From Fidelibacterota bacterium (lineage in GTDB: Bacteria; Fidelibacterota; Marinisomatia; Marinisomatales; JABMOV01): 22,902 nt of DNA. Under the pieces are notes generated by a model. It saw only the letters and a program-made list of their open reading frames with translations. It had not been told where the DNA came from and did no database searches. The translations under genes were made by a program, and so were the position numbers. Of the stretch, positions 49 to 5,072 are shown piece after piece. The stretch is from contig JBHHUC010000033.1 of NCBI GenBank assembly GCA_046861395.1, positions 1-22,902 on the forward strand, in the 5' to 3' direction. Position 1 is the first letter of the stretch. Each line of letters starts with the position of its first letter.

Positions 49-92
49 AGCGAGACGGGCTTCCCGAACCTTCGGGACGACATCAACCTTGG
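49..92 (-). pseudogene. Degenerate 3' half of tRNA-Gly, from the anticodon loop to the discriminator, with a palindrome in the T-arm
   Basis: 78..92 matches tRNA 383..397 at 14/15; 49..55 matches 359..365; palindrome TCCCGAA-CC-TTCGGGA at 62..77. Confidence 0.8.
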
Positions 93-325
93 ATCAGTGC
101 CTCCAAACGTTCGCGGCTCTTCCATCGCTTTAGCTCCTGCTCACGTTTGATTGCATCCGTTTTATTCTCATATATTTCATAATACACAATCTTCCACGGT
201 ATACCCGATTTCGTACTCCGGGACCAGCCGGCATTATGGCGGGCCAATCGTTTGTCCAAGTCACCCGTATATCCCACATAATATCGGCCTGTCTTCTCTG
301 ACGCTATGATGTACGTGTAATACAT
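83..325 (-). CDS. Stand-alone GIY-YIG nuclease (UPF0213-like), 80 aa
   Basis: YTYII...RYYVGYTGDLDKRLARHNAG...T...PWKIVYYE...A..RE..LK motifs; ATG at 325 chosen because the longer ORF runs through the tRNA. Confidence 0.9.
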   Translation of the reverse strand: MYYTYIIASEKTGRYYVGYTGDLDKRLARHNAGWSRSTKSGIPWKIVYYEIYENKTDAIKREQELKRWKSRERLEALIQG

Positions 326-358
326 AAACACAAACGCCCCGTAAGGGGCGTTGCTATG

Positions 359-365
<7 letters not shown>
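311..365. repeat. Direct repeat copy 2
   Basis: Identical to 1..55. Confidence 0.95.
333..352 (-). terminator. Terminator-like hairpin just downstream of tRNA-Gly
   Basis: 8-bp perfect stem AACGCCCC/GGGGCGTT, 4-nt loop, imperfect U tract, 6 nt after the tRNA 3' end. Confidence 0.6.
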
Positions 366-431
<66 letters not shown>

Positions 432-490: not shown

Positions 491-934
491 TTACGCCTTT
501 GTCCGGGGATAATATTCACATCGTTTTTCCCGGCGAAACAGGATTATGATACTCATGACCAGTAAAACCAGATCTTCGACGATTTTTCCCATTCCGACCA
601 TTTGCCCTTCCCGGAGACCACAACCGCATTCAATGTTGTAACCCCTTAATATGGCCGAAGCAATCGCAAAAATGAAGAATAACAGCAGCGCCCCGGACAA
701 CACGGCGGAACCGTCAACATAAATCCCGATGATCAATCCCAGACCCAATAGTAATTCCACCCAGGGGAGAACAATGGCAAATGCATTTTCCAGTCCCCAC
801 GGCAGAAGATGATAATTCCCGATCGCTCGTGCAAAAGTATCGGGATGGAGTATCTTATCGAATCCGGCGTCCACGAATATATATCCGAGGACCAACCGAA
901 AAAGAATAATCAGCCAGGGCAGGACTTTTTTCAT
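491..934 (-). CDS. DoxX/MauE family membrane protein
   Basis: RLVLG..F..AG..KI..P..F, LPWVELLLGLGL and RGYNIECGCG (MauE-type CGC) motifs; about 4 TM segments; ATG at 934 overlaps the rhodanese stop (ATGA); alternative start 964. Confidence 0.9.
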   Translation of the reverse strand: MKKVLPWLIILFRLVLGYIFVDAGFDKILHPDTFARAIGNYHLLPWGLENAFAIVLPWVELLLGLGLIIGIYVDGSAVLSGALLLFFIFAIASAILRGYNIECGCGLREGQMVGMGKIVEDLVLLVMSIIILFRREKRCEYYPRTKA

Positions 935-1416
935 GGCGCGATTGGCATCCCGGCGTTTTTCCATTCACTCCAGCCACCCAGAAATATATAAATATTCGTA
1001 AATCCACTGGCTTGCAGGTCATAGGCCAGTTCTTCGCTGGAACCACACTCGTCACCGTCACAATAGGTTACAATGGGTTGGTCACGTCCCTGCAGGGAAT
1101 CCAGCGTAAAGACCAGTGCCATATAATTATCCGCGTTATACGCTCCTGCAATGTGCCCTTCGGCATAGTAGTCCCATTCCCGGGCATCGATAAAAGGAAT
1201 GCCCCGGGCGTAAAATTCTTTGGCCTGAGCGAGCGTTATCGCTGCCAATCCCGGAGTCTCATCAGCCGTCACCGAACTGTCCTGATTCTCTGCCAGAACG
1301 GGGATGTCCGGTCGAAGCCAATCAATGCCATTGGGTCGAAAGGTGTTCGCTAGGGCACCCAGAACAACACCTGTAATGACAAAAATTACCGCTTGCCGAA
1401 TAGCCGTTTTAATCAC
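931..1416 (-). CDS. Membrane-anchored single-domain rhodanese (sulfurtransferase-like)
   Basis: N-terminal hydrophobic helix; FIDAR...YAEGHIAGA, active-site loop YCDGDECGSS, GF.NIYIFLGGWSEW; GTG start overlaps the upstream stop (GTGA). Confidence 0.92.
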   Translation of the reverse strand: MIKTAIRQAVIFVITGVVLGALANTFRPNGIDWLRPDIPVLAENQDSSVTADETPGLAAITLAQAKEFYARGIPFIDAREWDYYAEGHIAGAYNADNYMALVFTLDSLQGRDQPIVTYCDGDECGSSEELAYDLQASGFTNIYIFLGGWSEWKNAGMPIAP

Positions 1417-2582
1417 TGTTTTATCGGTTTTACCGGATTATTACGCCGGGCACCTTTAAGCTTATTTCTGGTATTAGGTTTCAATGCTTTGATTTCCGCC
1501 AGGGCTGTATTGACGAATTCCAACATCTCCGGATCATCACCAATTTTTCGATTCATGGCAACCCGTTTGAATTCACTGCGATTAACAGCCCGGTCCAGGA
1601 TGGCCTGTGCTTCCGCCCTTTGCTGACGATAATCCTTCACCAGTTTCAGCATGGTCTTATTATCGGCAAATATTTCTTCCAATGATTTTTCCGGATTCCG
1701 CTTCTGTAATCCGTCCAAACGTGTGCTGGTCATTTTCAATCGGGCGGCAGCCCCCGAAACATCGACAATGGGAGAATCAATATTTGCAATTGTTAGATGA
1801 ATTTCCGTGAGGAATTTACCCTGCTTGCCACATTTATAACCCAGAGGACCATTGGCAAGCTGTTTATCCGTGGGCCGGGTTTGCTGCAGACTGCCGCTGA
1901 AGAACAAATAGTCGGCACCGGAAAATGTATCCGTGGCCTGTTGATATTCATTGCTCTTGGCATTGACCATGACCACCACGATATCTGCTTTCCCCTGCAG
2001 TTCCTGGATCATATCCTTACCGGCCGTTAAATAGGGTTCCATGGCCAATTCGCCAATGGTGGCCGGCAACTGACTGGTCACGCCCGTGATGCCGATCTTG
2101 AGACCATCCCGCTCGATGATCCGGAACGGAATAAAGGCATATTCGCCGGTATCCTTGTAACGCAGGTTGGCCGATATGAAGGGAATACGAGTCGTATCCG
2201 TTATTGATTTCAGGAAATCAAATCCGGCTGCAAATTCAAAGGTCCCCACATTGACACCGTCACTGCCGATCCGGGATTGTCCCTGGATGATCTTTTTGGC
2301 CGTCAATAATTCGACTTCACGATTAGCATCCGTCAGACGCGGAGTGGTGAACAACAGGTCACCGGCATCCAATATGACGGGCTGCACGCCCTTTTCCTGC
2401 AGGGATTGAATGTAATATGCTTTCCTGGACAGACCGCCCAGGGGATTCTTTTTTCACCCACAGGGGTCGAGTTGACCGTGGACGTTCGCTGTGACTACAA
2501 ACGTGACTTCTCCGGATACGGGTTCTGTTTTAGAACAGGACCATAACGCCAGAAATACCAAAACCAGCGACCAGAATTTCAT
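1413..2582 (-). CDS. UshA-like (metallophosphoesterase/5'-nucleotidase N-domain fold) selenoprotein with probable lipoprotein signal; Sec at codon 43; 389 aa
   Basis: Frame of ORF 1413..2387 continues upstream as MKFWSLVLVFLALWSCSKTEPVSGEVTFVVTANVHGQLDPCG(UGA)KKNPLGGLSRKAYYIQSLQEKGVQPVILDAGDLLF; single in-frame TGA at 2456..2454; SECIS follows; alternative in-frame ATG at 2600. Confidence 0.9.
2424..2442 (-). promoter_or_regulatory. Bacterial SECIS element
   Basis: CCUGGGC-GGUCU-GUCCAGG: 7-bp stem with one G-U pair, starting 11 nt after the UGA; loop resembles the GGUCU of E. coli fdhF SECIS. Confidence 0.88.
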
Positions 2583-2608: not shown

Positions 2609-3019
2609 TTAAACCTTCGGTTTTTCAGCTAATTCTACTAATACGCCGCCCGTCCCTTTGGGATGGATGAATATAATACGATATCCTTCGGCTCCCGTTA
2701 TAGGATTTTCATTGACCAACGGAATATTTTTTTCACTTAATTCCCGGACCGCTTCATCAATACATTCCACTTCCAGACAAATATGGTGGATTCCAGGTCC
2801 ACGTTTATCAAGAAAGGTCTGAATGACGGATGACATATCCAATGGAACTAACAGTTCCACTTTCCCATTTGACATGGTATAAATATCGGTTCGAATTTTT
2901 TGTGATGCGATGAATTCCGACCCTGATTTCTTTAATCCCAGGATATTCTCCCAGAATTCTCCGGTCCGACCACCATCGTCAGTGGCAATTCCAATATGCT
3001 CGATACCCAATATTTTCAT
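2609..3019 (-). CDS. mce: Methylmalonyl-CoA epimerase (VOC family)
   Basis: IEHIGIA, KVELL.P, FLDKRGPGIHHICLEV, FIHPKGTGGVLVELAE. Confidence 0.9.
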   Translation of the reverse strand: MKILGIEHIGIATDDGGRTGEFWENILGLKKSGSEFIASQKIRTDIYTMSNGKVELLVPLDMSSVIQTFLDKRGPGIHHICLEVECIDEAVRELSEKNIPLVNENPITGAEGYRIIFIHPKGTGGVLVELAEKPKV

Positions 3020-4047
3020 AATAGTTCCCGGGGCGAATGTGTTCGTTTAGTAAGGCCCAGACCAATCCCCGTAGGCAAATGCAAACGACCTTCGCGGACT
3101 TCAGTTCCATGATAGGGATCATTGTCAATCAGGATATGTCCGTCCAGATCGGCAAAATCGACCAAAGGAGACAAATGGGACGCGGCCGTAATTCCTACGG
3201 ATGATTCCACCATACACCCCAGCATAATCTGCAGTTCATTTTTCCGAGCCAGATCAATCATGCGTTTCCCTTCCTGGAGACTACCACACTTCATGAGTTT
3301 GATGTTAATCCCATGAAAGGCGTGGGCAATGTTCGGAATATCGTCAGCCGTAAGACTGTTTTCATCCGCGAAAATCGGTAGCGGTGATTTCTTCTTTAAT
3401 TCTGCTGTGTTTCTCAGATCGCCTGCAGGTAATGGTTGTTCTACGAATTCTACGTTTTGCTGGGCCAGCCAGTGGCACATGTTCAGGGCCCGGTCCAGAT
3501 CCCAGCCTTCATTGGCATCAACACGAATGACCTTATCGGTATACCGTCGAATGATTTTAACAATGTCTTTATCCTGTCGGGTTCCCAACTTCACTTTCAG
3601 AAGGGGATAGGGAGTCGCTTCTTCAATTTTTTCCTCCAGTCCGTCCAGGTCCCCAATGGCAATAGTGAAAGAGGTCAGCAGTGATTCGGGGTTTCTGACA
3701 CCAAAATAATTGTATAACGGTATTTCCTGCTTCTGTGTCCACCAGTCCAGACAGGCCATGCTAAATGCCGCCCCCAGGGATCGCAAGCGGCCACTCCGGC
3801 GACGTAGATAATTCCAGAGTTCATCATGATCATTGGCGGACAAATCCCCGAAATCCTGCTCCTGCAAATGACGGAGAATCAAATCGGGATTTTCCTGGTA
3901 TCGCAGGGATGGTGCGGCTTCTCCCCGCCCGATGACATCTCCGTCAATCAGGTAAATATAAATAACATCATAATAGGTATGGGTACTTCGGGAAATACCA
4001 AACGGGTGGGTGCATTGCAGCCGGTATGTCGTCCATTTCAGCTCCAT
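3016..4047 (-). CDS. Dipeptide epimerase (L-Ala-D/L-Glu epimerase/DgcA-like, enolase superfamily)
   Basis: G.GEAAP, KVKLG, RVDANEGW, VEQP, ADE, INIKLMKCG, GCMVES, DLDG. Confidence 0.92.
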   Translation of the reverse strand: MELKWTTYRLQCTHPFGISRSTHTYYDVIYIYLIDGDVIGRGEAAPSLRYQENPDLILRHLQEQDFGDLSANDHDELWNYLRRRSGRLRSLGAAFSMACLDWWTQKQEIPLYNYFGVRNPESLLTSFTIAIGDLDGLEEKIEEATPYPLLKVKLGTRQDKDIVKIIRRYTDKVIRVDANEGWDLDRALNMCHWLAQQNVEFVEQPLPAGDLRNTAELKKKSPLPIFADENSLTADDIPNIAHAFHGINIKLMKCGSLQEGKRMIDLARKNELQIMLGCMVESSVGITAASHLSPLVDFADLDGHILIDNDPYHGTEVREGRLHLPTGIGLGLTKRTHSPRELL

Positions 4048-5072
4048 GAGGTCAATTCATAGGTAATCCGGTTAAGAATATTGCGGGCGCCGAAGCGAAT
4101 AAAATCATTGGTTGGGATTTGATATTTTTCCTCATATTCTTCCACAATGCGGCGGGCCGCAGCAACGGACATGGCATGGGTCAACAGATTCATTCCTACA
4201 TATTTGGTCTGTTTAAACGGTTTCATTAACCGGACATGGATATCCAGAAGCATTTTCATATCCGGAATGGGATAATCCGAAACATCAAACTTGCGAACTG
4301 GTTCATGGCACATGATCAGGTAATCCGGCATTGTACCGTGCAAAAGTCCTAATGTTACACCCGAATATAACATATTCACGATGGAACCCTGACCTTCCAC
4401 AATGATCAGGTCGGCCTTTTTAAATTTATCCATTTCATATTCAATTTCACCCGCCATGAAATCGGCCACCACCGCATCGACCGGGACGCCCCGTCCACTC
4501 AGTAAAATACCCGTCTGTCCGGTTCCGATAAACGGCGCGTTCAAACCCTGTTCTTCCAGCAAACGGGAAATTTCCCAGGCCGTAGTCATTTTTCCCGTGT
4601 CGCAATCCGATCCGATGGTCAACAAGACGGGGATTTTTCTCAGGCGCCAGGATTTTTTGGGGAAATGAGGCGGCGTCGGTGGCTTCCGAAGATCGGTAAT
4701 GGTTACATCATGCGTGGCAGCCAGGTCGGTGAAATAGGGATCATCGGAAAGAAAATCATGCATCCCGCTGATCAAATGCATCCCGGCTTTCAGTGCTTTA
4801 ACGATTTGCGTTTTATACGCCGGGGATATTCGTCCGCCCTGAGGGGCATTGCCCAGCACCAGCGTATCCGGTTTGAAAGCAAACAATTCTTCAATATCGG
4901 CCACGACGGGAATATCACCACCATAGCGAAGGATATCCGAAACAGTTTTCCCTGCAAATCGGGAATCAATGACGCCCACCACCTCTTTGGGCCGGTACCG
5001 GATTAAGGTATTGCCGGTTTTGCTGTATAAATAATTGAAGGATTGTTCGGCAAGAATGGCGAAACGTGGCAT
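4038..5072 (-). CDS. DUF1611 domain protein (DgcN-like)
   Basis: SKTG..L.RY, SGMHDFL, GSDCDTGKMT P-loop-like motif, GTGQTG, VEGQGS, YSGVTLGLLHG. Confidence 0.9.
   Translation of the reverse strand: MPRFAILAEQSFNYLYSKTGNTLIRYRPKEVVGVIDSRFAGKTVSDILRYGGDIPVVADIEELFAFKPDTLVLGNAPQGGRISPAYKTQIVKALKAGMHLISGMHDFLSDDPYFTDLAATHDVTITDLRKPPTPPHFPKKSWRLRKIPVLLTIGSDCDTGKMTTAWEISRLLEEQGLNAPFIGTGQTGILLSGRGVPVDAVVADFMAGEIEYEMDKFKKADLIIVEGQGSIVNMLYSGVTLGLLHGTMPDYLIMCHEPVRKFDVSDYPIPDMKMLLDIHVRLMKPFKQTKYVGMNLLTHAMSVAAARRIVEEYEEKYQIPTNDFIRFGARNILNRITYELTSWS

Follow-up and report, generated by a model that had tools for sequence, protein, structure and literature searches.

A rhodanese–MauE pair with a linked UshA-like CxU selenoprotein in Marinisomatota as a candidate envelope thiol relay

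Three overlapping genes encode a selenoprotein, a rhodanese and MauE

We analysed a stretch of 22,902 nucleotides (nt) from a Fidelibacterota bacterium (assembly GCA_046861395.1, contig JBHHUC010000033.1, positions 1 to 22,902 of the forward strand; hereafter the window), in which three consecutive genes on the minus strand encode an UshA-like CxU selenoprotein, a single-domain rhodanese-fold protein and a MauE-family membrane protein. We use the name Marinisomatota for the phylum, which we take to be the same as Neomarinimicrobiota, Marinimicrobia and Fidelibacterota. The selenoprotein gene (2582..1413; 389 amino acids (aa) with the UGA as U43) joins the rhodanese gene (931..1416; 161 aa) through a GTGA stop/start overlap at 1413..1416, and the rhodanese gene joins mauE (491..934; 147 aa) through an ATGA overlap at 931..934. 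The start of mauE is a conserved ATG at 934; the listed open reading frame begins at an upstream ATG at 964. The initial annotation of this DNA had described both overlaps and a paired thiol or selenol motif in each product, and all of these are confirmed: C41-G42-U43 in the selenoprotein (2454..2462), C119-DGDE-C124 in the rhodanese (1045..1062) and C103-G-C105 in MauE (620..628). Similar −4/−1 joints are found at most relatives' loci. The trio forms the end of a long same-strand series of unrelated genes, and a promoter and terminator scan of the window returned signals no better than chance level.

The in-frame UGA is a selenocysteine codon

Under translation table 11 the first gene breaks at the UGA at 2456..2454, and the identification of this triplet as a selenocysteine (Sec) codon is well supported. 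The source genome, which is 94% complete, encodes tRNA-Sec, selA, selB and selD. In a sample of 151 Marinisomatota genomes, the UshA-like gene (called at E <= 1e-25) occurs in 133, and 111 of the 133 matches contain an in-frame TGA. Two glycine codons 15 nt past the UGA are GGC in 84/84 and GGT in 83/84 distinct Sec copies, and the pair is found in none of seven Cys copies. A bacterial selenocysteine insertion sequence (SECIS)-type hairpin lies at 2424..2442 on the minus strand. These two synonymous codons, fixed in the Sec copies only, are part of it, and its G-led loop (GGUCU) begins 18 nt past the UGA. The folding energy of the hairpin is by itself not significant (z = −1.05), and the individual stem pairs are kept in 55–84 of the 84 Sec copies, except for the outermost pair, which is kept in just 36. 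Of five genomes tested for selA, both Sec forms scored over its cut-off and none of the three Cys forms did. The gene thus has the attributes of a bacterial selenoprotein gene: an in-frame UGA, a downstream SECIS, the Sec machinery and Cys homologues. Reading the UGA as Trp (code 4), as many database proteins do, was rejected because UGA ends both the selenoprotein and the rhodanese gene here, Cys forms exist and the Sec machinery is present. Of 120 database matches, 72 show Trp in place of Sec (PCGW), and most other entries, the window's own included, begin after the Sec codon. Standard annotation misses the trio, with the selenoprotein either shortened or its UGA translated as Trp.

The selenoprotein is a haem-less variant of a c554-fused family

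The selenoprotein has a signal peptide, a cysteine at position 16 and a DPCGU motif at 39–43. Judged from its sequence it is a probable lipoprotein; the lipobox (L-W-S-C16) is non-canonical, and C16 is kept in 29 of 30 copies. C41, G42, U43, G49, G50 and R53 are invariant in 21/21 aligned copies. The AlphaFold2 model (predicted local distance difference test (pLDDT) 89.6) matches 3ivd and UshA in Foldseek with E = 2e-19, pointing to the fold of a 5'-nucleotidase N-terminal domain. Enzymes of the 5'-nucleotidase/SoxB fold bear the dimetal motifs DxH, GD and GNH. In the selenoprotein the metal ligands are replaced: DxH has become N-V-[H/R], GNHE has become G-x-[F/Y]-[D/E] (GTFE here), and the later His residues correspond to N207 and S229. 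An active nucleotidase or SoxB was rejected on this ground, and the protein, its ligands replaced, likely serves to carry a CxU redox loop without being a hydrolase. The parallel with SoxB drawn in the initial annotation is not supported by the SoxB model either, which scores 33 bits where 550 are required.

The best family match is to NF041198, at 202.2 bits against a cut-off of 275 over model positions 4–393 of 519. The score stays below the cut-off because the c554 tetrahaem tail covered by the model is missing: the selenoprotein has no CxxCH motif and no C-terminal c554-type tetrahaem domain. It shares with NF041198 the PCGU motif, a GG-L-x-R motif, the 5'-nucleotidase N-domain fold and the exchange of Sec and Cys. 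A GTDB motif scan yielded at least 120 stretches, of which 80 with flanks were used and 40 left out. Twelve of these 80 loci are Marinisomatota-like and haem-less. A four-CxxCH tail is encoded at 53 (23 Sec, 30 Cys), all among the 68 non-Marinisomatota loci; another 10 are complete and have no haem motifs in frame, and 5 are truncated. In each of four database fusions that were scanned, the tail matches PF13435 c554, and all four score above the NF041198 cut-off. This makes the window's protein a haem-less variant of the NF041198 family, and outside the phylum the haem tail is possibly the domain's own electron sink. The family has been catalogued as 'COG0737 UshA-like CxU' in the GOS marine survey, where it has 76 sequences and counts among the twenty major families of selenoproteins (PMC2398784), and again as 'UshA-like, CxU' (PMC13188914); the available portions of both catalogues give no function for it.

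Several related proteins were seen along the way. Besides the selenoprotein, the source genome encodes a shorter UshA-like paralogue whose motif, CYC, has cysteines only (C114:10948-11889), and by matching coordinates some Marinisomatota appear to hold a c554-fused paralogue beside the haem-less gene. Three proteins of about 1,200 aa (P0159, P0198 and P0219) combine two UshA-like stretches with a four-haem tail, and in P0159 a DsbA-like domain lies between the two stretches. The source genome is also rich in multihaem c-type cytochromes, with 31, 20, 17, 13, 12, 11 and 10 CxxCH motifs (contigs C35, C39, C88, C71, C8 and C109), which suggests extensive extracytoplasmic electron transfer.

The rhodanese has an acidic two-cysteine loop

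The second product (PF00581) has an N-terminal hydrophobic helix as membrane anchor and a YC-DGDE-C loop, in which C119 aligns with the canonical rhodanese catalytic position. Compared with 6mxv, the loop has a two-residue insertion that carries the second cysteine. The pattern [YF]Cx4C is present in 73 of 74 distinct homologues, and the loops together contain 168 acidic vs 3 basic residues. In GlpE/PspE-type rhodaneses a short single-Cys loop suits an anionic sulfur donor. The window's protein has the single-domain fold and the Cys at the catalytic position, and lacks the short single-Cys loop. The GlpE model scores 27 bits vs 102, and the protein also stays under the cut-offs of TsoB (31/805 bits), rhodanese_LYCAU (44/115) and the PQQ_CXXCW rhodanese (22/128).

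MauE and the disulfide machinery of the phylum

The third product matches PF07291 MauE with 93.6 bits against a cut-off of 27, and only MauE, DoxX and DoxX_2 were matched. Of the DoxX/MauE assignment made initially, the MauE part thus stands and the likeness to DoxD falls away. The protein has four predicted membrane helices, with the CGC motif (ECGCG) in the helix 3–4 loop. CGC is found in 79/79 distinct homologues, and CGC, K27 and E60 are invariant in 16/16 aligned copies. Both termini have a basic bias (0.18 and 0.28 K/R per residue) and loops 1 and 3 an acidic net charge, from which an outward orientation is predicted for the CGC loop and for the rhodanese. Hydropathy, charge bias and a natural fusion (below) likewise place the motifs of the trio on the same outer face in prediction, as the initial annotation required. 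The direct neighbours of mauE are not the mau genes mauA, mauB, mauD or mauG, for which the rest of the genome was not searched.

The initial annotation missed that MauE has experimental DsbB-like activity in other species. MauE proteins of Caldithrix and Desulfatibacillum restore motility and PhoA activity in E. coli dsbB mutants, an activity that requires both CGC cysteines, and a quinone site is predicted at the conserved Lys and Glu (bioRxiv 10.64898/2026.03.05.709764). By analogy with these proteins, the window's MauE probably acts as an oxidase. DsbB itself was not credibly found in the phylum sample, where the one match in 151 genomes is marginal and has four internal stops. VKOR was matched in 35/151 genomes and the DsbA-type model PF13462 in 19/151, and 59 of the 103 genomes with a rhodanese–MauE pair have neither a VKOR nor a PF13462 match. 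The source genome has no match to PF13462 or PF01323. At C119:7700-13400 it holds VKOR-like and CxxC redoxin-like genes in what, from the sequences, reads as a [NiFe]-hydrogenase cluster. Elsewhere, in several families of the window's class, DsbA-type genes with one in-frame TGA probably encode selenoproteins (L238, L239, L241-L243 and L245-L247).

The rhodanese–MauE pair is the conserved core

MauE is present in 108 and the anchored rhodanese in 106 of the 151 phylum genomes, and the rhodanese adjoins MauE in all but five of the genomes with MauE (103/108). One of these five is interrupted by a contig end and four belong to family f21, in which MauE is fused to a C-terminal CxxC domain (CPHC, CDHC, CHDC or CEHC; L232, L233, L248 and L249); the rhodanese is found in none of five f21 genomes. 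In f21 the fused CxxC domain stands in the rhodanese's place, a natural domain swap. This domain is divergent and BT_3928-like below the cut-off. In two genomes (G126 and G072) the rhodanese is itself fused to MauE. An extra membrane helix joins the two, so that the rhodanese domain comes to lie on the opposite side from the MauE N-terminus. Twenty-nine database proteins hold both Pfam domains, and 26 of the top 30 Desulfobacterota MauE loci have a rhodanese-like neighbour, 19 of which match Cx4C. The pair is a robust conserved unit that extends beyond the phylum. The initial annotation overlooked that this pair is the conserved core, to which the selenoprotein is linked in part of the phylum only.

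The multimer prediction that had been suggested as a check was run for MauE with the rhodanese and gave 0.32 vs 0.00 for the best control, with at least 79% contact agreement and partner pLDDT of at least 70. This mark is reached by 116/157 solved complexes and 2/215 mismatches, and at values of 0.60 or lower by 18/157 complexes and both mismatches, so that the model weakly supports a MauE–rhodanese contact. Two other kinds of MauE fusion were noted: one to a cation-efflux (CDF) transporter in similar Desulfobacterota frames of about 500 aa, L448 (G252) among them, and one to an AhpC-TSA domain (L280).

Linkage of the selenoprotein gene to the pair

Among close relatives, all three genes are found at 28 of 30 loci, the other two being cut by contig ends, and at 7 of 12 further loci. 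The initial annotation would have been refuted by a pair that is not linked to the UshA-like gene in other genomes, and within the window's class it fares well: wherever a genome of that class holds the pair along with the selenoprotein gene, the trio is linked (44/44, as tallied from the listed matches in the 151-genome sample). Two gene orders occur, selenoprotein–rhodanese–MauE in 35 and rhodanese–MauE–selenoprotein in 9. A quick tree built from 48 sequences of the selenoprotein places the two orders in separate clades, with the unlinked family f21 as sister to the second (SH-aLRT 97–99), so that there were either two joinings or one link that was rearranged and lost once.

In Desulfobacterota, 35 of 201 genomes have both selenoprotein and MauE matches, and by the listed coordinates, with 42 matches unlisted, one cluster is found (L463). 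Its genes, all on one strand within 4.5 kb, encode a PCGU-c554 protein, a UxxC redoxin, MauE and a rhodanese. In the same genomes MauE is matched in 4 of 44 with NF041198 over its cut-off vs 74 of 157 others, a contrast that is a lead only, because kin are not independent and the MauE model may miss divergent copies. Strict exclusion of MauE by the c554-fused forms was rejected on account of L463 and of 11 genomes with a fused form and MauE elsewhere. A dedicated role of the trio in multihaem cytochrome maturation, which the abundance of multihaem genes in the source genome had suggested, is, for the one cytochrome family tested, not supported: in family f27 the selenoprotein gene is present in 25/27 genomes and MauE in 21/27, and a c554 match in just 3/27.

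Other features around the trio

Directly upstream of the trio, in the region 2609-5072, lie a methylmalonyl-CoA epimerase gene (over its cut-off) and DgcA-like and DgcN-like genes (both below theirs); the epimerase and DgcA-like genes were observed next to the trio solely in the window's own family and in family f14. Within positions 1-431 of the window there is an exact 55-nt direct repeat (1-55 = 311-365). It spans the 3' end of a tRNA-Gly, a hairpin resembling a terminator, and the beginning of a small gene of the GIY-YIG type (400..83). At about 48-90 a degenerate tRNA-like piece suggests tandem tRNA-piece/GIY-YIG units that extend past the contig end.

Discussion

We propose that the three genes encode an outward-facing oxidative thiol relay, in which electrons would pass from substrate thiols and/or C41/U43 of the selenoprotein to C119/C124 of the rhodanese, from there to C103/C105 of MauE, and finally to quinone; we put the probability of this reading at about one half. 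MauE would act as a DsbB-like membrane oxidase, and the anchored two-Cys rhodanese would be its dedicated non-thioredoxin partner, replacing DsbA. The selenoprotein may be a client of the pair or an upstream exchange catalyst that is re-oxidised by it. Beyond what the genes themselves establish, we infer the shuttle role of the rhodanese, the direction of the electrons, quinone as the acceptor and the position of the selenoprotein. These parts are not equally secure. The adjacency, the fusions and the domain swap in f21 make it more probable than not that the rhodanese is the physical redox partner of MauE, and the functional coupling of the selenoprotein to the pair, for which we rate the chances at slightly under even, is the weakest step of the relay. 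Of the extracytoplasmic redox module put forward in the initial annotation, a thiol/selenol module with conserved linkage is retained.

One group of contrary observations concerns the selenoprotein step. In the other classes of the phylum, the trio is found in none of the 58 genomes in which the pair and the selenoprotein gene occur together. Outside the phylum, L463 apart, neither a rhodanese nor a MauE gene lies beside the UshA-like gene at any of the 68 GTDB loci, and no link was seen at 30 Desulfobacterota UshA-like loci (1.5 kb flanks only) or at 78 metagenome loci (78 of 124 stretches examined, 31 of them of at least 5 kb and many short). Moreover, 31 phylum genomes hold the UshA-like gene without the pair, from which it follows that MauE is not needed by it everywhere; for instance, 9 of 12 small g14 genomes that lack MauE, rhodanese and c554 matches carry the Cys form. 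These data raise the question of whether the pair forms disulfides while the selenoprotein does something independent, for example as an envelope thiol reductase, an isomerase or a sensor, and is a co-transcribed neighbour in the window's class only. Two aspects of gene context fit this explanation: elsewhere the gene adjoins unrelated housekeeping genes, and the trio closes a run of genes that have nothing to do with it. The housekeeping gene in other classes is often that of type 2 isopentenyl diphosphate isomerase (IDI-2; L077, L079, L089, L091 and L093, with the family confirmed for L077 only). Against mere neighbourhood speak the occurrence of the link in two opposite orders and two clades, the tight stop/start overlaps, the separate Desulfobacterota cluster L463, and the fact that in Desulfobacterota c554-fused forms and MauE all but exclude each other. 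On balance we consider an independent selenoprotein unlikely, although it is the alternative that survives best, and prefer the oxidative relay.

A second group of observations weighs against the roles that the relay assigns to the rhodanese and MauE. Six genomes of other phyla (L265, L266 and L269-L272) keep a rhodanese without loop cysteines directly beside MauE, and five of the six carry a c554-fused selenoprotein; the dithiol is therefore not a universal requirement, and the rhodanese domain may have a structural role. For the f21 CxxC domain, a thioredoxin fold is weakly supported (best PDB match YkuV with E = 0.2; AhpC-TSA_2 with E = 0.045), and when the f21 fusion was compared with a redoxin by BLASTP, the two did not align. 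In most MauE homologues CXC is followed by Phe, for which Gly stands here (CGCG in 25/79 and CGCF in 54/79). The source genome holds, in addition, the VKOR-like gene in the hydrogenase cluster and two DsbD/CcdA-type genes. Finally, MauE is functional in E. coli without its own partner, and the source for this and for the complementation is a 2026 preprint without peer review (bioRxiv 10.64898/2026.03.05.709764).

The electrons could also run the other way, with MauE taking them from quinol and passing them via the rhodanese to a CxU protein that reduces oxidised envelope thiols or peroxides. Selenols are usually low-potential, reducing sites. The UxxC redoxin near MauE in L463 and the AhpC-TSA fusion in L280 would fit such a scheme, and earlier work, as cited in bioRxiv 10.64898/2026.03.05.709764, took MauE as a possible reductase. 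However, two MauE proteins complement dsbB mutants (bioRxiv 10.64898/2026.03.05.709764), and the two DsbD/CcdA-type genes would already cover reduction in a source genome that has no DsbB or DsbA match. The reducing direction thus appears improbable to us, and we retain the oxidative one.

The initial annotation had also considered that a relay might mature the selenoprotein. Since Sec is inserted during translation, an outward-facing relay cannot do so. The remaining part of that proposal, a relay of sulfane sulfur or selenium (from thiosulfate, polysulfide or selenite) in the manner of SoxB–rhodanese–DoxD, is at least as improbable as a reducing relay: it has in its favour the rhodanese fold with Cys at the catalytic position, the membership of MauE in the DoxX clan, the DoxX–SseA–SodA complex of M. 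tuberculosis as described in the accessible part of PMC6930017 and the Sec-containing rhodaneses listed in that of PMC13188914, yet it is disfavoured because the hydrolase metal ligands are lost, the two-Cys loop is acidic and lacks the usual basic residue, the Pfam scan gave no DoxD match, neither DoxA (PF07680) nor SoxY was detected in the source genome (94% complete), and the near-core distribution in the phylum (133, 108 and 106 of 151) fits a housekeeping function better than a sulfur energy pathway.

If the oxidative relay is correct, a broader and more speculative picture can be drawn, which we regard as rather unlikely in its full extent. Marinisomatota and several other phyla would have a thioredoxin-free envelope disulfide pathway, with the rhodanese as the DsbA-equivalent for MauE and a dead 5'-nucleotidase as the CxU oxidative-folding catalyst that feeds it; elsewhere this catalyst would discharge into its fused c554 haems, the haem tail and the rhodanese–MauE pair being interchangeable sinks. 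Each part of the trio is a catalogued family or a variant of one, and the module is real and conserved. A full-text search, with most subscription literature outside its reach, found no publication that joins rhodanese, MauE and DoxX, and a search for MauE with rhodanese gave unrelated matches only. The gene context and the domain swap provide a first concrete hypothesis for the function of the UshA-like CxU family, and if the rhodanese does act as a thiol-disulfide shuttle, this would be a new use of its fold.

How does the trio compare with known systems? The MauE proteins of the preprint have the same four helices, the CGC motif in the helix 3–4 loop, the conserved Lys and Glu, and come from genomes without DsbB; the differences here are the candidate CxxxxC rhodanese partner and the Gly in place of Phe after CGC (bioRxiv 10.64898/2026.03.05.709764). 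The preprint expects a thioredoxin-family intermediary and leaves open the partner of MauE in genomes without DsbA, for which the locus supplies a testable candidate; in its main text, rhodanese, selenium and the window's phylum have no occurrence (bioRxiv 10.64898/2026.03.05.709764). DsbA–DsbB and DsbA–VKOR follow the chain proposed here, from a soluble or anchored dithiol via a membrane dithiol to quinone, whereas the trio has no thioredoxin fold and MauE has a single cysteine pair. DsbB has a second, shuttle cysteine pair, and with only one pair in MauE the dithiol of the rhodanese may serve either as DsbA or as the second pair of DsbB. SseA of M. tuberculosis is a tandem-domain cytosolic enzyme, unlike the anchored two-Cys single domain of the window. 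The DoxX–SseA–SodA complex nevertheless resembles the trio, to judge from the accessible part of its description, in joining a DoxX-clan membrane protein to a rhodanese-family partner in thiol redox balance, and differs in having a superoxide dismutase and no selenoprotein (PMC6930017). TsoB (NF045694, UxxxxU) combines, as here, a rhodanese domain and a chalcogen pair spaced by four residues with a membrane redox domain, but that domain is DsbD-like and not MauE, and the window's rhodanese falls far short of its model, as noted above. The DoxDA thiosulfate:quinone oxidoreductase consists of DoxD and DoxA subunits, in place of which the window has MauE and the source genome no PF07680 match. 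In the mitochondrial relay Mia40–Erv1–cytochrome c, electrons from a CxC motif reach a respiratory acceptor by way of a shuttle dithiol. Relatives of the selenoprotein with a fused c554 domain suggest the same logic, an analogy for which we claim no homology.

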